DNA of 63,945 bases, filler included, from Pseudomonadota bacterium (lineage in GTDB: Bacteria; Desulfobacterota; Desulfobacteria; Desulfobacterales; JBDRRP01): the NCBI GenBank assembly GCA_043825735.1. It is 9 parts of 9 records of this genome, joined end to end, with 100 filler letters (N's around TTAATTAATTAA, not from the genome) between each part and the next. Parts side by side here need not be neighbours in the genome. Positions count along the whole stretch, not along the records: positions 35,212 to 49,511 come from JBDRRP010000127.1; 8 more parts are not named here. One strand, written 5' to 3'. A program made the translations under genes and the position numbers. The notes beneath the pieces were generated by a model. It had not been told where the DNA came from, ran no database searches, and saw only the letters and a program-made list of their open reading frames with translations. This document shows positions 1-48,071 of the stretch, piece after piece (within the stretch, counting starts at the first letter, position 1; the number at the start of each line of letters is the position of its first letter).

Positions 1-2
1 AG

Positions 3-74
3 CTGCTGGAGCACTCCGATGCTTTCAACGATCTGAAAGACGAACTCAAGGCAACAATGGCCCCAGCCCCGTAA
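3..74 (+). CDS. 3' end of an unidentified CDS (partial; ...LLEHSDAFNDLKDELKATMAPAP*)
   Basis: Open frame from the window start to TAA at 72-74, with GC-rich codon usage like the core genes. Confidence 0.5.
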   Translation: MLEHSDAFNDLKDELKATMAPAP

Positions 75-35315: not shown

Positions 35316-35353
35316 TAAAAATTAACGGCCCCCTGAAAGGACCAAAAGAACCT

Positions 35354-35524
35354 AAACGATCCCAACGATCCCAACGCTCCTAACGATCCAAACGATCCCA
35401 ACGATCCCAACGATCCCAACGATCCCAACGATCCAAACGATCCAAACGATCCAAACGATCCTAACGATCCTAACGATCCAAACGATCCAAACGATCCAAA
35501 CGTTCATAACGATCCAAACGATCT
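35354..35524 (+). repeat. Tandem 9-mer array (HAACGATCC) x19
   Basis: Counted directly; ends 17 nt before the ilvN start. Confidence 0.95.
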
Positions 35525-35541: not shown

Positions 35542-36030
35542 ATGAGTGACGAAAAACATACGCTGACAATGCTGGTGGACAACGAACCCGGTGTGCTCTC
35601 CCGGGTGGCAGGGCTTTTCAGCGGCCGGGGCTTCAACATTGAAAGCCTCTGTGTGGCCGCCACGATGGACCCGAAGGTCTCACGTATCACGTTGGTCACC
35701 AAGGCCAACCCTTCCTTGGTGGAACAGATTGAAAAGCAGCTCAACAAACTGGTGAACATCATCAAGGTGCGGGAAATGACTCCCGAGGAATCGGTTCAGC
35801 GCGAGATCGCGTTGATTTGTGTCAAAGCCAGCAAGGAACACCGGGCCGAGATCCTGCGCATAGTCGACATCTTCCGCTGCAAGGTGGTGGATGTGGGGCT
35901 GGAGCACTATATCATCGAGGTCACCGGCGACGAAGGCAAGCTCAATGCACTGCTCAACCTTCTCAAACCCATCGGCATTGAAAAGATTGCGAGGAGTGGG
36001 ACGCTGGCGCTGTTCAGAGAACCCAACTAG
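35542..36030 (+). CDS. ilvN: Acetolactate synthase small subunit
   Basis: LVDNEPGVLSRVAGLFSGRGFNIESL ACT domain. Confidence 0.95.
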   Translation: MSDEKHTLTMLVDNEPGVLSRVAGLFSGRGFNIESLCVAATMDPKVSRITLVTKANPSLVEQIEKQLNKLVNIIKVREMTPEESVQREIALICVKASKEHRAEILRIVDIFRCKVVDVGLEHYIIEVTGDEGKLNALLNLLKPIGIEKIARSGTLALFREPN

Positions 36031-36552
36031 TGGTTGCTGCGCGACCGTCATATGCGCCTGGCGGCGCGTCAGTTGTGCCTGCGGCACGTCAATTGCCCCT
36101 TCGGGGCGTCAATTGCGTCTGCGACGCGTCACTTGCGCCTGGCGGCGCGTCAGTTGTGCCTGCGGCACGTCAATTGTTCGCTGCGCGACCGTCATATGCG
36201 CCTGGCGGCGCGTCATTAACAGCGAAGCGCAGCGAGCATTTGACGCTGGCGAAGCCGGCAATTGACGGGCGCGCAGCGACCATATGACAGCGAGCGCAGC
36301 GAGCATTTGACGCTGGCGAAGCCAGCAATTGACCGGCGCGCAGCGACCATATGACAGCGAGCGCAGCGAGCATTTGACGCTGGCGAAGCCGGCAATTGAC
36401 GGGCGCGCAGCGACCATATGACAGCGAAGCGCAGCGAGCATTTGACGCTGGCGAAGCCAGCAATTGACGGTCGCGCAGCGACCATATGACAGCAAAGCGC
36501 AGCGAGCATTTGACGCCGGCGAAGCCGGCATTTGACGGTCGCGCAGCGACCA
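36031..36552. repeat. Modular mini-hairpin array A (24 modules in two inverted arms)
   Basis: GTCA-NN-TG linkers separate GC hairpins; 9 modules forward, then (F-G-A) x5 inverted. Confidence 0.9.
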
Positions 36553-36606: not shown

Positions 36607-37659
36607 ATGGCAAAGATCGATTTTGGAGGAACGCTGGAAGAAGTCGTCACCTCGGAAGAATTCCCGCTGGACAAGGCGCGTGACGTACTCAAGGACGAAA
36701 CCATCGCCGTCATCGGCTACGGCGTCCAGGGTCCAGGGCAGGCCCTGAACATGAAAGACAACGGCTTTAAGGTCATCGTGGGGCAGCGCAGCGGCGGCGC
36801 ATCGTGGGAACGTGCAAAAGCAGACGGGTTTGTTCCGGGTGAGACCCTGCTCTCCATCGAGGAGGCCGCCAGCCGGGCCACTGTCATCCAGTACCTGCTC
36901 TCGGATGCCGGCCAGGTAGCCATGTGGCCCAAGGTCAAGGCCTGTCTCAACGAAGGCGACGCCCTCTACTTCTCTCACGGATTCGGCATCGTCTACCGTG
37001 AACAGACCGGCATTGTTGCGCCCGAAAACGTCGACGTCATCCTGGCCGCCCCCAAGGGCTCTGGCCGGACGGTGCGAACCAATTTCCTGGCCGGCAGCGG
37101 CATCAATTCCAGCTTCGCCGTCCATCAGGACTTCACGGGTCGCGCCCGGGAGCGCACCCTGGCCCTGGGTATCGCCATCGGCTCCGGCTACCTTTTCGAG
37201 ACCACCTTTGAAAGGGAAGTCCATAGCGACCTCACCGGCGAGCGCGGCGTGCTCATGGGTTGTCTGGCCGGCGTCATGGAAGCCCAGTACAACCTGCTGA
37301 GAAAACACGGCCACAGCCCTAGCGAAGCGTTCAATGAGACCGTGGAAGAGTTGACCCAGAGCCTCATCCGCCTGGTCGCTGAAAACGGAATGGACTGGAT
37401 GTTCGGCAACTGCAGCACCACCGCCCAGCGCGGCGCCCTGGACTGGGCCCCGAAATTTCGCGATGCCGTGGTGCCGGTGTTTGACGACCTTTACGAAGCG
37501 GTCATCAACGGCTCGGAAACAAGAAGGACACTGGACGTGAACAGCAAACCCGACTACCGGGAGAAACTTCAGGTAGAGCTCGACCAAATCCACAACAGCG
37601 AGATGTGGCGCACAGGCGCCGCCGTTCGTGCACTCAGGCCGGAAAACCGCAGCAAGTAG
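36607..37659 (+). CDS. ilvC: Ketol-acid reductoisomerase
   Basis: IGYGVQGPGQ, APKGSG, SDLTGERG, CSTTAQRGALDW. Confidence 0.95.
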   Translation: MAKIDFGGTLEEVVTSEEFPLDKARDVLKDETIAVIGYGVQGPGQALNMKDNGFKVIVGQRSGGASWERAKADGFVPGETLLSIEEAASRATVIQYLLSDAGQVAMWPKVKACLNEGDALYFSHGFGIVYREQTGIVAPENVDVILAAPKGSGRTVRTNFLAGSGINSSFAVHQDFTGRARERTLALGIAIGSGYLFETTFEREVHSDLTGERGVLMGCLAGVMEAQYNLLRKHGHSPSEAFNETVEELTQSLIRLVAENGMDWMFGNCSTTAQRGALDWAPKFRDAVVPVFDDLYEAVINGSETRRTLDVNSKPDYREKLQVELDQIHNSEMWRTGAAVRALRPENRSK

Positions 37660-41299: not shown

Positions 41300-41790
41300 G
41301 ACAGGATTAACAGGATATACAGGATATACAGGATGGAAGCGGCCTGCGGCCGAAAAGCAACTGCAAGGGCAAGGGCGAATTAACCGCAGATTACACGGAT
41401 TACGCAGATGGGCGGCCTGCGGCCGGAGGGCAACTGCAAGGGCAAGGGCGAATTAACACGGTTCAACCCGTCGTCATGCCGGGCTTGATCCGGCATCCAG
41501 AGATCGCTTCGGAGCAACCTGGATCCCGGCCTTCGCCGGGATGACGTCGGAGGCATGATTGGTCTATCGGTTTGCTTTCAACACCAGATCAAACGGCACA
41601 TTATTCGGACAAGCGCTCTAACAGCTCATCAGCTGCTTTCCGGCCGACTTGTCCGCCGTAGCTCGTAGAGCGAAGGTGGAAGGCCGCCCAGTCGCGTCAT
41701 CTGCGGTTAAATCTCTTTGCAGTGGGTGTGCCCGGCCGCAGGCCGCCTAACTGTTATCTGCGTTTATCAGCGTTCCTCCGCGTCCCATTA
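41300..41790. repeat. Cluster of nested repeats (ACAGGAT 9-mers, GGCCTGCGGCC hairpins, CGTC-type REP at 41472-41546)
   Basis: CGTCATGCCGGGCTTGATCCGGCATCCA...TGGATCCCGGCCTTCGCCGGGATGACG; flanking CGCAGAT and ATCTGCG arms. Confidence 0.75.
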
Positions 41791-41898
41791 TAAAAAAACG
41801 CAATTATCTACAAATTAAAGGCGCGGCCCCGTTGCCATGGCGCTGCCCGGTGCACGCTTTTTGGAGTAGATCAGCCCGTTATCGTTTATCCATCTTTC

Positions 41899-41959
41899 TT
41901 TCGTGTGTTTCGTGTGTTTCGTGTGTTTCGTGTGTTTCGTGTGTTTCGTGTGTTTCGTG
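41899..41959. repeat. Tandem 9-mer array (TTTCGTGTG) x6.8
   Basis: Read directly from the sequence. Confidence 0.95.
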
Positions 41960-41991
41960 GTTTATGGTTCTTTTTTGGTAGATAAGCACGT

Positions 41992-42025
41992 AAAAAAACG
42001 GGGCACCGACTCCGGTGCCCCGTTT
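41992..42025 (-). terminator. Rho-independent terminator
   Basis: AAAAAAACGGGGCACCG-ACTC-CGGTGCCCCGTTT downstream of the minus-strand gene. Confidence 0.85.
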
Positions 42026-42051
42026 GAAACGATTCAACGCCTGCGAGGCGC

Positions 42052-42630
42052 CTATTTTTTGAGATAACCGTCGCGCATACCCCGGTCGGCCTTTTCGCCG
42101 AAATTGTAGGTGAAGTACATCCGGATGAAGTCCGGATCGGTAATGGTCCCTTTCTCTTCCCCCTGGAACACCAGAGTCAGCCCTTTACCGGGGACATAGG
42201 TGGTCACCGATGTCTTTCCATCAGCCATGTCCTTGTCCAGCCATGATGCGTAAAGCTTGATGTTCGCCTGCTGCGCTTTGACCAGTTCCGGCGGATTGGC
42301 CTCTTCGATGGCTTCGATGAATCCTTCCTGAAGCTTGGGCGCGGTCGCCTTGCTGGTGAGATAATGCAAATAGAATTGTTTCACTTGATCCGATGCGATA
42401 GCTTCCTCCGGGCTGCTGGTTGGGCGCTCCAGGTAAAATCCGCCGGCAAACACTTTGACGAAACCGAATTTTTTGCGCAACCCGACGCCGTTGAGTAAGA
42501 GCGTCTTTCCATCAACGATTTTTTCCCCCGGGAATTTAACGTCGGCGATGGTCATATCGCCGGCTATCGCCGGTGCCGTCACGGCAAGCACCATCACCAT
42601 CACCAACCCCCATCTGATACACGGCTTCAT
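42052..42630 (-). CDS. Chalcone isomerase-like family periplasmic protein
   Basis: Signal peptide, LLLNGVGLRKKF..VKVF, YVPGKG. Confidence 0.8.
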   Translation of the reverse strand: MKPCIRWGLVMVMVLAVTAPAIAGDMTIADVKFPGEKIVDGKTLLLNGVGLRKKFGFVKVFAGGFYLERPTSSPEEAIASDQVKQFYLHYLTSKATAPKLQEGFIEAIEEANPPELVKAQQANIKLYASWLDKDMADGKTSVTTYVPGKGLTLVFQGEEKGTITDPDFIRMYFTYNFGEKADRGMRDGYLKK

Positions 42631-42995
42631 TGACACACACCCCCCTCTTCAAGATCGTAAATATTCGGAGTGGGTTAGACAGCCGCCGACCGGCTGTTTG
42701 CCTCCCCCCCGGTTGCTCCGCTCCGGTGCCCCCTGCACCGGGGTAACACTCGCTGTTTGACATGAAAAAATCAACTTGTTGTAACGAATTACTTAATCCC
42801 CTTCTCTATGAAGCGGCAGTTTAGCGTCAAAGCCCGGTGTACCCGATGACATTGTAATCACCACGGAGTCACGGAGGGCACGGAGAAATGCAAAAGAAGG
42901 TGATGTTGACACTAAAATCTCCGTGTCCTCCGTGACTCCGTGGTTCAACATCACTTTGGGAAAAGACCAACTGGAGATTTATGGGCAACCGTCTA

Positions 42996-43739
42996 CTATT
43001 TTTTAAGCAACCGTTTGGCCCAATCGGCGTAGTAGGTGTCGTCGGATGCCGCAGCCTTTTCAAGCAGGCCGGTGGCCTCGGTTCTGTTTTCAGCCCCGCC
43101 GATATCCCGCAGCAGTTCGGCCATGAACACATACGCCTCGGCATTGTCGGCGAAAAAAGGCGTCGCCTGAAACTCTTGGTAGTACTCCAGAGACTTGTCC
43201 TTGTCTTTGAGCGGCCAGGGGAGCACGGCCCAAAACCGCGCCAGTGAAAGGATCGGACCGCCCTTGTTGTAGTTCTTGTCCAACCGGTAGGCTGCTTCAA
43301 AACTGGTCTGGGTTTTATCCTTCAGGCCTTCACTCAAAGCGGTGAAAATGCTCACCCCGTCTGAGTAGACGCCCACACTGAGCCCGTAGTAATACTGCCC
43401 CTCCACCTTGTCCGGCGCCAGTTCAACCGCTTTGGCGGCATAGGCCATGGCCTTTTTTCCGTACGTGGCACACAGATCCTTCCACCCCTCGGTGCCATTT
43501 TTCTTGGCCTTGTTGCCGTAGTCGCGATTGGCGCGGGCGCATTTCCAGTTGGCGGTGTAGTCATCGGGTTGAGCGCTCAGCGCCTGCTCGTACAATGCGA
43601 TGGCCTTGAGATAGTTGTCGGCACCGCCTTGAGCGTAAAAGGCGTCGGCCTGTTCCAACACATCGGCCGCAGGCAGCGGCACGGCCGCGAACAGCAGCAG
43701 CAGCAGCAGCAGACAAACCAAACTTAACCAGTGTTTCAT
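42996..43739 (-). CDS. Secreted TPR-like helical repeat protein
   Basis: Poly-Leu signal peptide encoded by (CTG)7; TPR-like helices. Confidence 0.75.
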   Translation of the reverse strand: MKHWLSLVCLLLLLLLFAAVPLPAADVLEQADAFYAQGGADNYLKAIALYEQALSAQPDDYTANWKCARANRDYGNKAKKNGTEGWKDLCATYGKKAMAYAAKAVELAPDKVEGQYYYGLSVGVYSDGVSIFTALSEGLKDKTQTSFEAAYRLDKNYNKGGPILSLARFWAVLPWPLKDKDKSLEYYQEFQATPFFADNAEAYVFMAELLRDIGGAENRTEATGLLEKAAASDDTYYADWAKRLLKK

Positions 43740-43981
43740 CTTCCCCCTCCATAGCAAACGGTTATTATAGCCGTAAAGCGCCTCCCGAGCCCACCCCGCA
43801 TCGCCCCCCAAAAGCGTTGCGCTGACCGCTGACGGTCCACATTCCAGCGGAAAACGCCAGAATTGATGAGCATGTAAAAAACTGAGATCACCACAGAGGA
43901 CGCAGTGAGTGCAGAGACAACTTATAAATTATTCGGTGCATTCTCTGCGGTCCGCTCTGCGTTCTCTGTGGTTCAATTTGA

Positions 43982-44449
43982 TTAGTCGCCCATCTCCGCC
44001 ATGTAATCGTCGTACGTGGTCTCCAAAAAGAGCTTGTGTTTGGCTTCTTCCTGACAGAGCACTTTGAAAAGCTTTTTCGATGCGTCGTCCTGGGCATTGG
44101 CCAACAACTGGTTATAGAGCTCGAGCGCTTTTTCTTCCCGTTTGGCGGCGAGCATCAGCAACGCGTTATATGCCATCCCCGGCTCATAAGTCAGATCGAC
44201 AACGAAGTTGCTGCGCTTGATGTCGGTAATCCACTTGAGTTTGTATTCTTTCACGCCTTCAACAACCCCGCCGGAGACCATCTGCTTGAGCATCTTCTCG
44301 TGCTTCTTTTCCTGGCCTGCGAACTCAAGAAGCATTTCCTTGATGCCGGACATGGACTCCATGGCGGCGCATTCGGTATAAAACGCAGCCGCTTCAGACT
44401 CTTTTTCAATAGCAAAATCCAGAATTTCCTTAATCGTTTTGAATCCCAT
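43982..44449 (-). CDS. Rubrerythrin/ferritin-like protein
   Basis: AIEKE..AAAFY, EKKH and EEAKH di-iron motifs. Confidence 0.88.
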   Translation of the reverse strand: MGFKTIKEILDFAIEKESEAAAFYTECAAMESMSGIKEMLLEFAGQEKKHEKMLKQMVSGGVVEGVKEYKLKWITDIKRSNFVVDLTYEPGMAYNALLMLAAKREEKALELYNQLLANAQDDASKKLFKVLCQEEAKHKLFLETTYDDYMAEMGD

Positions 44450-44486
44450 GAAAATCTCCTTTCCCTTTATCTGGACGGACAATAGT

Positions 44487-44634
44487 TAGTGCCCATCCAT
44501 AAACGGCATCTTTTGGCCCAGAGCGGCGTTTTCGCACTTTTCGAAATCCTCGAAATAGCGCTGCTATTCCTCCGGTTTCGAAAATGCTCAAGCCTTGCTC
44601 TGAACCAAAATCTACCATTTCTGGACGGACACTA
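44487..44634. mobile_element. 148-bp MITE-like element
   Basis: TAGTGCCCATCCATAAACGG...CCATTTCTGGACGGACACTA imperfect TIRs; related to the elements at 15191, 22018 and 45962. Confidence 0.75.
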
Positions 44635-44644
44635 TTTTGGCTAT

Positions 44645-45571
44645 CTAACCACACTGCAACGAACCAATGATCTCTGCAATGTTCTCAATCCCCTCTGCGT
44701 CCATAAATGCGCCAATCCCGTCGATAATTTCCATACTCGCTCGGGGATTGACGAAATTGGCGGTACCCACCTGGACCGCGGTGGCTCCGGCCATGAGAAA
44801 TTCGAGGGCATCTTCGGCCGTCATGATGCCGCCCAGCCCCACCACCGGGATCTTTACGGCGCCCGCCACCTGCCAGACCATCCGAAGCGCCACGGGTTTG
44901 ATGGCCGGCCCGGAAAGCCCCCCCGTGATGTTGGCCAGTCGAGGCCGGCGGGTGCGGATATCGATGGCCATTCCGGCAATGGTGTTGATTAGGGAAATGG
45001 CATCGGCGCCGGCGCCTTCCACAGCCCTGGCGATTTCGGTAATGTCGGTCACGTTGGGGCTCAACTTGACCATGAGCGGTTTTCCGGTGCGCGCGCGCAC
45101 CGCGCGGGTCACCGTAGCGGCCATCTCAGGATGAACGCCGAAGGCCACACCGCCGGCGCTCACATTGGGGCAGGAGATGTTGATCTCGATGCCCGCCACC
45201 GCGTCGAGACTGTCGATACGCTCTGCCAGTCGGGCATAGGCATCGACGCTCTTGCCGTAAATGTTTACCCATGACGGCACCGACAACCGTTTCAGAAACG
45301 GCAGTTTGGTGTCGATAAACCCGTCGATGCCGACGTTCTCCAGCCCGATGGCATTTAGCATGCCGCAGGCGGTCTCAACAATACGCGGCGGCGGATTGCC
45401 TCGGCTGGGTTCCAGGGAAATGCCTTTGACGATGATCGCGCCCAGCCGGTCAAGCTCCAGCAGGTCGTCAAACTCCATTGCGTAACCGAAAGTTCCCGAT
45501 GCCGTCATGACTGGGTTTTTGAGAACCAGACCGCCGATATCAACCGAGAGTCGCGGGGGTGTCACCGTCAT
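44645..45571 (-). CDS. pyrD: Dihydroorotate dehydrogenase class 1B catalytic subunit
   Basis: [36 protein letters not shown]. Confidence 0.93.
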
Positions 45572-45985
45572 GAGTTTGTGGTCCGTTCGGCAATGGATGC
45601 GCAGTGATCGTCGTCATTTTGCCGGCACGCCGTCTTTTCTCTGCGTCCCTGCGCCTCTGCGCGAAAACGGTTTTTGATTTTATCCGGAATCTTAGTGTCC
45701 TTCTTGCCTTATCACGGCCGTTGTCCCGCCATGACCGACTCGGAATAGGCAACGCGACTAATCGCCAGTAGAACCACAGCGTACTCACAGACAACGGCTG
45801 TGGCACGAGGATGGCAGAAGCTATATGGGCTCGCGCAGAGACGCTGAGACGCAGAGAACACCTTTTGGGCTGCTCTCATGGTGCCTGCGGCGTCTTGTCA
45901 GCAGGTGCCGGCGCGGGTCAGCCTGAACCATACCATAACTGCCGAATCATCCACAACACAGTAGTGTCCATCCACAGGGGTTATA

Positions 45986-46239
45986 TGCCGGCTTCGCCGG
46001 CGTCAATTGCTCGCTGCGCTCGCTGTCATATGGTCGCTGCGCGACCGTCACATGTCGGCTCCGCCGACGTCAATACGCTTCGCTGTCAATGACGCGCCGC
46101 CAGGTGCAAGTGACGGTCGCGCAGCGACCAATTGACGCCCCGAAGGGGCATTTGACGCGCCGCCAGGCGCAAGTGACGCGTCGCAGACGCAATTGACGTG
46201 CCGCAGGCACAATTGACGTTCGCGCAGCGAACAACTGAC
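45986..46239. repeat. Modular mini-hairpin array B (same vocabulary as array A, inverted, different order)
   Basis: GTCA-NN-TG linkers; junction matches that of array A at 20 of 21 nt. Confidence 0.9.
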
Positions 46240-46279
46240 GCCACATCGGGAACCAAAACCGACACCCTGTGAGCAGCAA

Positions 46280-47575
46280 CTATTTTGTGCCCGCCAGGGC
46301 GCCCATCACTTCAGCGGCTGCTGCCACCGTCTGGGTGATGTCCGCATCACTGTGGGCCAGGGATACGAAGGCCGCTTCGAACTGGGAAGGCGCCAGGTAG
46401 ATGCCGCGTTCTCGCATGCCGGCATAGTAGGCACAGAACCGGTCCAGGTTACTGGTTTTGGCGCTCGCGAAATCATGCACCGCATTGGCGGTAAAAAACA
46501 TCCCCAGCATGGATCCCACCCGGTCGACGGCCACGGGGATGCCGGCATCCGCAGCCGCCCGTGACAGCCCGGCGGCCAGTGCCGCAGTGGCCGCATCAAG
46601 CCGTTCATAGACACCGGGTTTTGCCAGTTCGCGGAGGGTGGCGATGCCGGCGGTCATGGCCAGGGGATTTCCGGAAAGCGTACCGGCTTGATAAACGGGG
46701 CCCTGAGGTGCGATCAGTTGCATCAGGTCGCGGCGGCCGCCATAGGCCCCCACCGGCAACCCGCCGCCGATCACCTTGGCAAGACAGGTAAGATCCGGCA
46801 TGACCCCGTAAAGCGTCTGGGCGCCGCCGTAGGCTACCCGAAAGCCGGTCATGACTTCGTCAAAAACAAGCAGGCTGCCCGCGCGCGTGCAGATATCGCG
46901 CAGGCCCTGCAAAAACCCATCCACCGGTGACACCAGGCCCATGTTCCCTGCCACCGGCTCGACGATGATGCAGGCGACATCGCTGCCGCGTGCCGCCATA
47001 ACCCGCTCGACCGCGTCCAGATCGTTGTAGGGCAGACTCAAGGTAAGGGCCGCGATTGCGTCGGGGATCCCGGGGCTGCCGGGGATGGCAAGGGTGGCCA
47101 CTCCGGAGCCGGCATCCACCAGCAGGGTGTCGGCGTGACCGTGATAACAACCATCGAACTTGATGATCAGCGGCCGTCCGGTCGCTCCCCGTGCCAGCCG
47201 GACGGTGCTCATGGTGGCCTCGGTCCCCGAATTCACCATGCGCACCACGTCAATGGACGGCACGGCGTCGACGATCATGCGGGCCAGTTCGATTTCCAGA
47301 TCCGTGGGCGCCCCGAAACTCGTCCCCCGATCCAGGACCAAAGAGAGTGCCTTCATTACAGCCGGGTGGCGATGACCGAGAATCATGGGGCCCCAGGAAC
47401 CGACGTAATCGATATAGCCGTTGCCGTCGACATCGTAGATGCGGGAGCCCTCGGCGCGGTCGATGAACAGCGGCGTGGCCCCTACGGCGCGGCAGGCCCG
47501 GACCGGGCTGTTGACGCCGCCGGGAATAATGGCGCTGGCCGTTTCAAACAGACTGCAGGACTTTTCATGTTTCAT
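46280..47575 (-). CDS. hemL: Glutamate-1-semialdehyde 2,1-aminomutase
   Basis: PGGVNSPVRA, SGTEAT, FDEVMTGFR, YQAGTLSGNP, APSQFE. Confidence 0.96.
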   Translation of the reverse strand: MKHEKSCSLFETASAIIPGGVNSPVRACRAVGATPLFIDRAEGSRIYDVDGNGYIDYVGSWGPMILGHRHPAVMKALSLVLDRGTSFGAPTDLEIELARMIVDAVPSIDVVRMVNSGTEATMSTVRLARGATGRPLIIKFDGCYHGHADTLLVDAGSGVATLAIPGSPGIPDAIAALTLSLPYNDLDAVERVMAARGSDVACIIVEPVAGNMGLVSPVDGFLQGLRDICTRAGSLLVFDEVMTGFRVAYGGAQTLYGVMPDLTCLAKVIGGGLPVGAYGGRRDLMQLIAPQGPVYQAGTLSGNPLAMTAGIATLRELAKPGVYERLDAATAALAAGLSRAAADAGIPVAVDRVGSMLGMFFTANAVHDFASAKTSNLDRFCAYYAGMRERGIYLAPSQFEAAFVSLAHSDADITQTVAAAAEVMGALAGTK

Positions 47576-47749
47576 GGCGACGCGCGCTCCTTCCATGATG
47601 ACGGGATTTGGCAAAGATAGGGTTACGGCCGGCACGGCCCGCAAGAGAACCGCACCGGTTTCCAGGCTCACCTACTATCGCTGGGAATCGCTTGTCAATA
47701 GACGCCGGAGTTGATTTCGGTGCGCGAGAGATCTATACCTGTCATTAAC

Positions 47750-48032
47750 GTTGATGAATCCGAAAAAAAGCAATTTTCTCGCAAAGACGCCAAGTTCGCC
47801 AAGAAAAACATTTTACGCTTATGCATAATGCTCCAGTCGGTCTCTTCCCAAAGTGATGTTGAAACCAGTCATGGAGGGCACGGAGATTTATAATTCATAT
47901 CTCGCGCAGAGGCGCAGGGAAAAACACTCGCGCAATTCAATTTCCCGCAGTTCTCTGCGTCTCCGCGTCTCTGCGCGAGAACATCTTTTTGGGTTAAAAA
48001 CCCTTCGCGTGCTCCGTAAACTTCGTGGTCAT
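47750..48032. repeat. Composite palindromic repeats (CGCAAAG / CACGGAG / CGCAGAG families)
   Basis: Related to 2543-2640, 25950-26047, 42858-42960 and 45638-45860. Confidence 0.7.
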
Positions 48033-48071
48033 CAAAAAGGACAGTTAGGAAATCGCCATTGGGGATACCTC

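Follow-up and report, generated by a model that had tools for sequence, protein, structure and literature searches.

A mini-hairpin array between ilvN and ilvC, very probably a gene-less copy of a heptamer-armed four-helix-bundle cassette

Introduction

The ORF-bearing intervening sequences of the 23S rRNA genes of Leptospira and Coxiella have complementary ends and encode S23p proteins of family PF05635, the same protein family as in the full cassettes considered in this work (PMC4990558). Heptamer repeats beside the S23p ORF have been reported in these elements, and hairpin inserts are not mentioned in the accessible portion of that publication (PMC4990558). A second related group is that of the heptameric intergenic repeats of Xanthomonas and Nostoc, made of 7-base units that often form convergent pairs near stop codons; the portion of the source consulted presents them as plain tandem runs and mentions neither hairpin inserts nor four-helix-bundle genes (PMC4692102). 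The small dispersed repeats (SDR) of Nostoc are very small structured elements that go into defined short targets, as reported for one SDR (cited in PMC4390886). Finally, the REP, BIME and REPIN elements with RAYT, and the CGTC-tagged REPs and NTS with Ssn, are mosaics of tagged hairpins that lie between genes and are handled as single-stranded DNA (PMC3733652, PMC6006769, PMC3116915, PMC11893778, as far as the accessible parts of these sources go). A literature search, with thin coverage of subscription papers and supplements, returned no account of heptamer-armed four-helix-bundle cassettes or of arrays such as the one described here.

This array lies on contig C127 of a Desulfobacterales genome (G000, the genome studied), in a window of 63,945 nt, i.e. 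the whole stretch of DNA analyzed, which consists of joined contigs. Unlike the rRNA intervening sequences, it is located between two protein-coding genes, ilvN and ilvC, and lacks an ORF; hairpins interrupt its arms, which are 180-340 nt long and unable to pair as a single uninterrupted duplex. With the Xanthomonas and Nostoc repeats it shares the 7-base units, their convergent disposition and the proximity to a stop codon. Compared with the REP, CGTC and NTS families, the tag differs, the stems are shorter, the loops are triloops and many different stems coexist in one array; there is no linked nuclease, and the gene linked to such arrays in other genomes encodes a four-helix-bundle protein. 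RAYT-linked REPs carry a GTAG or GTGG guide at their 5' foot according to the part of the source consulted (PMC6006769), whereas the foot word here is TGAC, and the CGTC-tagged REPs, for which stems of 8-9 bp, loops of 4-5 nt and a mostly dimeric arrangement are given in the accessible text (PMC3733652), have only the tag word in common with the present units.

Results

The locus comprises the following features:

35542..36030, plus strand: ilvN, acetolactate synthase small subunit (over the NCBIfam cut-off)
36032..36215, plus strand: left arm, nine mini-hairpins, each followed by a GTCA-NN-T linker (from the parse)
Left-arm modules 1-5, plus strand: A 36032-46, B 36054-67, C 36075-87, D 36095-107, E 36115-127
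Left-arm modules 6-9, plus strand: B 36135-148, C 36156-168, hybrid A 36176-190, B 36198-211
36212..36220: head-to-head arm junction (strand flip), the gene position in full cassettes of other genomes, empty here
36217..36552, minus strand: right arm, five repeats of F-G-A giving 15 modules, linker on this strand
36607..37659, plus strand: ilvC, ketol-acid reductoisomerase (over the NCBIfam cut-off)
45987..46256: further array of this family in the window, two arms with 5 + 8 linkers, next to a gene identified by eye as hemL

The first hairpin starts after a 1-nt gap from the ilvN stop codon (36028-36030), and the ATG of ilvC is 55 nt past the array end. Positions 36032-36551 resolve without remainder into 24 modules, nine on the left and 15 on the right, forming two converging arms in which the 7-nt linker reads GTCA 5' and TGAC 3' of the junction. 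The 7-base unit is presumably comparable to the STRR heptamers. An original prediction, made from the sequence, had parsed the region fully into hairpins separated by a linker ending in TG; the complete parse holds with a linker GTCA-NN-T, the final G belonging to the next hairpin. Our parse also agrees with the proposed order, A-B-C-D-E-B-C-A-B in the left arm, then a strand flip and (F-G-A) x5. The seven modules proposed are not all hairpins of fixed sequence, since point variants, or hybrids combining two types of stem, occur among the A and G copies, and F is not a Watson-Crick hairpin; its ViennaRNA energy of -0.5 kcal/mol comes from a program that models sheared G.A pairs poorly and whose energies say little on strand preference, and we infer that F could fold on the TGAC strand only, through G.A pairs. 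The array had also been said not to be a simple tandem repeat; its right arm, however, consists of a three-module block repeated in tandem with a 67-nt period (4.9 copies, 95% matches). No ORF was found between the arms in the window, no Rfam family exceeded its gathering score (there was one weak chance match), and a promoter and terminator scan gave nothing exceeding shuffles. Just upstream of ilvN, around 20 tandem copies of a 9-nt unit occupy 35342-35523, and this unit is also present on other contigs of the genome.

Hairpins in these arrays have stems of 3-6 bp and loops mostly of 3 nt, and are arranged as units in long mosaics. Their loops are strongly polarized, as had been noted from the sequence: among odd-length array modules of G000, 77 of 87 have a GNA centre on the strand that reads TGAC and none on the opposite strand. 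The corresponding figure is 118/128 in G056, another genome of the order, with one module of reverse polarity, and 24/37 in metagenome arrays, with nine of the 37 reversed. At the ilvN-ilvC locus this places GNA or GNNA loops on the minus strand in the left arm and GNA loops on the plus strand in the right arm. In nine hairpin-armed cassettes of other genomes, all 72 counted GNA hairpins follow the orientation of their arm (33 upstream on the minus strand and 39 downstream on the plus strand), so that polarity flips inside one transcript. The ends of the loop are constant: among the unique triloops of G000 the first position is G in 40/45 and the third is A in 43/45, with a variable middle base, while there are 16, 11 and 14 distinct perfect stems in G000, G056 and the metagenomes, respectively. 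Of 20 unique stem mismatches, read on the TGAC strand, 17 are G.A or G.T. According to the part of the source consulted, GNA-type mini-hairpins have a far higher stability in DNA than in RNA and are poorly bound by SSB (PMC13037366). The loop polarity, which follows the linker and flips within one transcript, ties the GNA triloops to the linker strand rather than to transcription, and together with this stability it favours single-stranded DNA. Loop polarity thus points to the single-stranded DNA that had been proposed as an intermediate, and inheritance from one founder unit could be part of the explanation of this polarity.

The order of the modules gives indications on how the arrays grow. 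The same module recurs at a distance of three positions in 15 of 47 pairs in G000 and 30 of 95 in G056. Near-identical neighbours are scarce, with 1/86 and 4/131 versus 8.0 and 21.8 in shuffles, a test that overstates significance because block duplications are not independent; moreover, all five near-identical pairs correspond to different stems, so identical modules are never adjacent. Single-module duplication, the simplest product of slippage, is therefore absent, and as a guess we could suggest that a competing fold between identical, self-complementary neighbours is behind their exclusion. There are also hybrid modules in which the crossover lies inside the hairpin. Block duplications and hybrid modules point to slippage. 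The prediction that modules are added one at a time was not supported in that form: growth is mostly by multi-module blocks, hybrids cross inside the hairpin, and at one site four modules keep their order between two species. One-at-a-time insertion of hairpins into heptamer arms may nevertheless occur, as there are single inserts in loci L343 and L305 and similar hairpins in a second heptamer family of G000.

A structure-based parser identified 18 clusters of two or more linker-tagged hairpins in G000, while in 3 Mb of control sequence from an order-4 Markov model the 150 modules detected were all single, with no clusters; the array is real and well beyond chance. The idea of a dispersed repeat system was borne out: there are 11 arrays on seven contigs in G000, including the two in the window, and others in further genomes. 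The same holds for the exclusion of CRISPR, given that the variable parts recur within and between arrays and are not unique spacers. All the G000 arrays are intergenic and have two converging arms, in some cases with a decayed arm or a short unrelated centre, and several, as read from ORF coordinates rather than from a systematic count, start at or a few bases from a stop codon. They are clustered, with five pairs within 20 kb where 0.27 would be expected.

The congener G001 has no array between ilvN and ilvC, nor at the site orthologous to 45987-46256. It does contain decayed arrays elsewhere, without any PF05635 match in the genome, and one of them is orthologous to the array on G000:C106, with four modules kept in the same order. 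The shared site and the empty ones indicate that the family is older than the species split and that a given site may be full or empty. Variation in module order had been put forward as a check, and the order does differ between loci and at one orthologous locus, that of metagenome array L211 and its counterpart in G056; for the ilvN-ilvC site the comparison ends with the absence of the array in G001.

G000 harbors a second array family, with GC mini-hairpins on a GAAC-linker heptamer and loops in both polarities (G000:C113:8671, C151:454-691/2033/6546/20158/28106, C25:78664/82154/89506, C131:12578 and C112:2516), often adjoining the type of 9-nt repeat found upstream of ilvN. Among clustered hairpins of this genome, the join reads GAC|G in 78 cases and AAC|G in 32. 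GAAC-linker hairpins are thus also joined after AC, and hairpin invasion of heptamer arms is not unique to the GTCA-NN-T linker. Other dispersed repeats occupy the gaps of contig C127 at 41440-48050 of the window (C127:6230-12830), namely a ~150-nt element of which many copies share 95% identity, 9-nt arms in pairs, and two paired hairpins resembling NTS. At G000:C48:33160-33340, upstream of a gene read by eye as methylmalonyl-CoA epimerase, there is a gene-less inverted pair of 9-nt arms where six relatives hold a hairpin-armed cassette.

A loop-containing pattern had matches in six of 401 genomes of the order: 31 in G000, 85 in G056, one true match in G003 and chance single matches in the other three. 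G056 arrays follow the same grammar with stems of their own, and are mostly single-armed, some with N gaps. In metagenomes a strict pattern had no matches; a looser one gave 79 loci, of which six are real arrays, two of them two-armed. One of the six, L211, is orthologous to a G056 site and differs from it in module order. A degenerate two-armed array in the Rhodothermales (L128, corresponding to genome G401) was found by the array pattern alone and recognised by eye. A GTDB-wide scan with only the linker returned at least 121 loci, mostly ordinary tandem repeats, so the taxonomic range is a lower bound, and a stem test on the loci listed flagged six, all of them plain repeats. Viral contigs had six pattern matches, with no array and no relative of the four-helix-bundle gene. 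Hairpin vocabularies are largely genome-specific.

Three further observations were made in these searches. In G056, around 10 of the ~18 array sites listed are on the gene-bearing contig (G056:C3:80200-191158), within 70 kb of the gene, in a contig that represents ~5% of the genome; this concentration suggests local hopping. Locus L383 (G056:C21:993-1300) consists of a four-module block plus a short unique spacer in about four tandem copies, with a 97-nt period. The short arrays common to marine alphaproteobacterial MAGs (L056-L058, L066, L076, L094, L140, L161-L164) have the same linker word with unstructured spacers of 14-15 nt, and constitute a different repeat family.

In G003, G056 and G401, two arms enclose a four-helix-bundle gene of a single clade of PF05635 (TIGR02436), and the genomes having both array and gene span two families of this order and one other phylum. 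Among 12 PF05635 loci examined in G000, G003 and G056, two are between converging hairpin arms (G003:C1:639178 and G056:C3:150049), their proteins being ~60% identical to each other; the other ten lack such arms, and most of them have other inverted simple repeats. The G401 gene between hairpin arms is 58% identical. Close homologues (E value of 1e-25 or better) are present in 36 of the 401 genomes of the order. Among the best 30 loci, nine have arms of linker plus hairpin, one of these with a single hairpin, five have the linker as a plain 7-mer without hairpins, and most of the remaining 16 have other 7-mers. A tree of 38 proteins placed 14 of the 15 linker-type genes on one branch (support 96/93), while the grouping of hairpin-armed genes as one clade was supported by 51/52 only. 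The phylum of G401 has matches at 1e-35 in eight of 301 genomes, five with linker arms and one of them with a single hairpin insert, and the wider phylum of G000 at 1e-38 in four of 401 genomes; all four new loci of the latter have linker arms, three with hairpin modules. In G844 two copies of the cassette are found at unrelated loci, with homology bounded by the outer ends of the two arms, and dN and dS between the copies are 0.09 and 0.66. The gene is under purifying selection and moves together with its arms. Pairs of gene and array are not independent, however, since one locus is common to six hairpin-armed cassettes and the protein was the route to most pairs; only in G056, G003 and G401 did the array lead to the pair, and for G003 the protein itself served as the query.

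Genomes with the gene and genomes with dispersed arrays do not always coincide. No cognate gene was found in G000, where the best PF05635 proteins have 26-32% identity and an HMM of the clade gives only distant paralogues; the shortest contig is of 2,069 nt, so the gene could be on a dropped contig, and a search for arms at contig ends with the loop-plus-linker pattern found none. The gene has been either lost, or lies on a contig under 2 kb, or is not needed. It was not found on any of the six metagenome array contigs, plasmids gave only eight distant homologues, and in the two congeners of G056 there is no gene and no array match to the 8-kb stretch searched. Conversely, in five gene-bearing genomes of family f36, nine of ten matches to a narrow module pattern are in the cassette and the tenth resembles coding sequence; matches being almost confined to the cassette, presence of the gene does not guarantee spread.

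The predicted structure of the protein (pLDDT 77) matches Xcc0516 and BT_0352, with a weaker match to Avd. Avd is a nucleic-acid-binding pentamer, and to our knowledge no catalytic activity has been assigned to the four-helix-bundle protein. Xcc0516 is cited as a pentamer in the part of the source consulted (PMC4990558).

Some variants of the cassette deserve mention. At L343 (G666:C14:7296-7640) the cognate gene has an internal stop codon and the upstream arm has one hairpin between two plain units, and L305 also has a single hairpin insert in an otherwise plain arm. Two other four-helix-bundle genes, at L285 and L289 (G000:C15:27890 and C151:12274), share an insert of ~25 nt nested in their upstream simple-repeat arms.

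Discussion

The arms of the cassette are mirror-image runs of a clade-specific 7-base unit, and in this lineage nearly every unit carries a GC mini-hairpin. A PF05635 ORF is found between the complementary ends in G003, G056 and G401, and not in the window, where there are converging arms of the 7-base unit of the clade; as the cognate gene is absent from the G000 assembly, the array is classed as an empty derivative. The presence of the gene between arms elsewhere, the plain 7-mer arms of sister cassettes and the lack of the gene in the assembly lead us to consider it very probable that the array is a gene-less, hairpin-invaded copy of a cassette composed of left arm, four-helix-bundle gene and right arm. 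It is best filed as a hairpin-saturated variant of a cassette related to the ORF-bearing intervening sequences. The proposal of a stand-alone system that adds discrete modules at the linker is not supported as it stands, because the arms belong to this cassette and its sister arms are hairpin-free.

A mechanism can be proposed in which the element would be handled as single-stranded DNA. Each insert on the TGAC strand would fold into a very stable hairpin with a GNA loop and loop out, leaving the 7-base units aligned as in a plain arm. A ring-shaped, Avd-like protein would probably recognise these units and be needed to seed new, often nearby, copies; that the protein binds its own arms is a tentative idea to which we give slightly less than even chances. 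Once placed, arms would lengthen and be rearranged with no dedicated enzyme, through replication slippage and through exchange among similar units, giving rise to blocks of two to five modules and to hybrids; we regard such DNA-level slippage as the likely mode of growth. New perfect stems would probably arise from fold-back template switching, a process established for quasi-palindromes.

The explanation as a whole, empty cassette plus mechanism, is the one we favour, with some reserve. Counted against it are the 11 fresh-looking arrays of G000 in the absence of a cognate gene, the decayed arrays of G001 in a genome without PF05635, the mostly single-armed arrays of G056, and the breakdown of loop polarity in nine of 37 metagenome modules.

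An alternative that we judge unlikely, although it retains some merit, is that the hairpins are tiny mobile units of their own, similar to SDRs, inserted singly by an enzyme after the AC of a heptamer unit, with arrays resulting from repeated insertion. The Nostoc SDRs described by Elhai et al. in 2008 are said to be 21-27 nt long and mostly isolated, some inserting into heptamer runs; the hairpins studied here measure 9-17 nt and occur once in each heptamer unit, with up to 28 of them in an array. Lone hairpins in the otherwise plain arms of L343 and L305, the similar hairpins joined after AC in the GAAC-linker family of G000, the fact that identical neighbours never occur, and the report, in the part consulted, of an SDR inserting precisely into a short target (PMC4390886) would all be accounted for in this way. 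They have to be set against the predominance of multi-module blocks, the hybrids that cross inside hairpins, the largely genome-specific vocabularies and the lack of a linked enzyme. Both processes are compatible, in that single insertion can account for the first invasion and slippage for growth.

Selection could also act on RNA, the arms pairing in the ilvN-ilvC transcript as in an rRNA intervening sequence, so that cleavage by RNase III or slower decay would tune the operon. The transcript of the array has a predicted fold of -286.6 kcal/mol (z -7.5) with a 20-bp terminal stem, PF05635 genes are found within intervening sequences excised by RNase III, according to the accessible part of the source (PMC4990558), and several arrays begin, by ORF coordinates, at or a few bases from a stop codon. 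We consider this improbable nonetheless: both arms are transcribed in the same direction and yet loop polarity flips between them, triloops prevail instead of RNA tetraloops, the two arms use different hairpins, the terminal stem is, by eye, not common to other arrays, and the site is empty in the sister species G001.

The arrays could also be a family of REP/BIME or NTS type, spread in trans either by a RAYT (HUH) transposase or by a GIY-YIG nuclease (Ssn), genes of both kinds having been proposed as possible partners. Such an origin would agree with the CGTC word at each linker, a tag described in the consulted part of PMC3733652, and with the arrays being intergenic mosaics. As regards linked genes, this is largely refuted: modules are within ~1.5 kb of none of the 14 Y1 transposase (PF01797) loci of G000 and G056, and of the 16 GIY-YIG loci found, the 11 small ones, which were examined, have none nearby either (the other five being long, UvrC-sized ones), several of the small loci adjoining tRNA-like copies. 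Stems and loops are, besides, shorter than in the CGTC families, and the published SRM pattern, as given in the accessible part of the source (PMC11893778), matches none of 29 arrays while having 133 matches elsewhere in G000, all of which makes this origin very improbable. Small GIY-YIG genes located beside duplicated tRNA-like 3' ends were observed at L269, L270, L275, L278 and L279, in G000, G003 and G056. Lastly, an array falsely stitched from shared modules by a short-read assembler is hardly credible, in spite of the N gaps in G056 arrays and of the fact that no unitig among the pieces listed for run X1 spans the whole array, so that internal copy number rests on the assembly: single X1 unitigs cross both array edges with 0 differences (a run that may be the source sample and hence is not an independent check), in run X3 ilvC is joined to a related right arm, and the grammar recurs in independent assemblies.

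Conclusions

The empty, hairpin-invaded cassette proposed here shows how a plain repeat can turn into a striking, "combinatorial" array between genes. This variant amounts to a natural mutagenesis experiment, in which the 7-base unit has been kept and more than 30 different stems have been inserted between units. Such variety of stems, with the loop always referred to one strand, predicts that the protein reads its own 7-mer in looped-out single-stranded DNA of one polarity, and the variant supplies ready-made substrates and controls for testing it. A bolder generalization, which for now we hold to be rather doubtful, is that PF05635 proteins would be sequence-specific, single-stranded DNA-binding rings able to mobilise the gene that encodes them along with heptamer arms specific to each clade, and that hairpins of less than 20 nt with GNA loops would parasitise these arms unit by unit and loop out, under a rule that forbids identical neighbours. 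If true, it would define a nuclease-free cassette and one of the smallest known mobile units, and it would provide a source for the unexplained 7-mer repeats of bacteria. The finding thus bears on the function of PF05635 proteins and on the origin of bacterial heptamer repeats.
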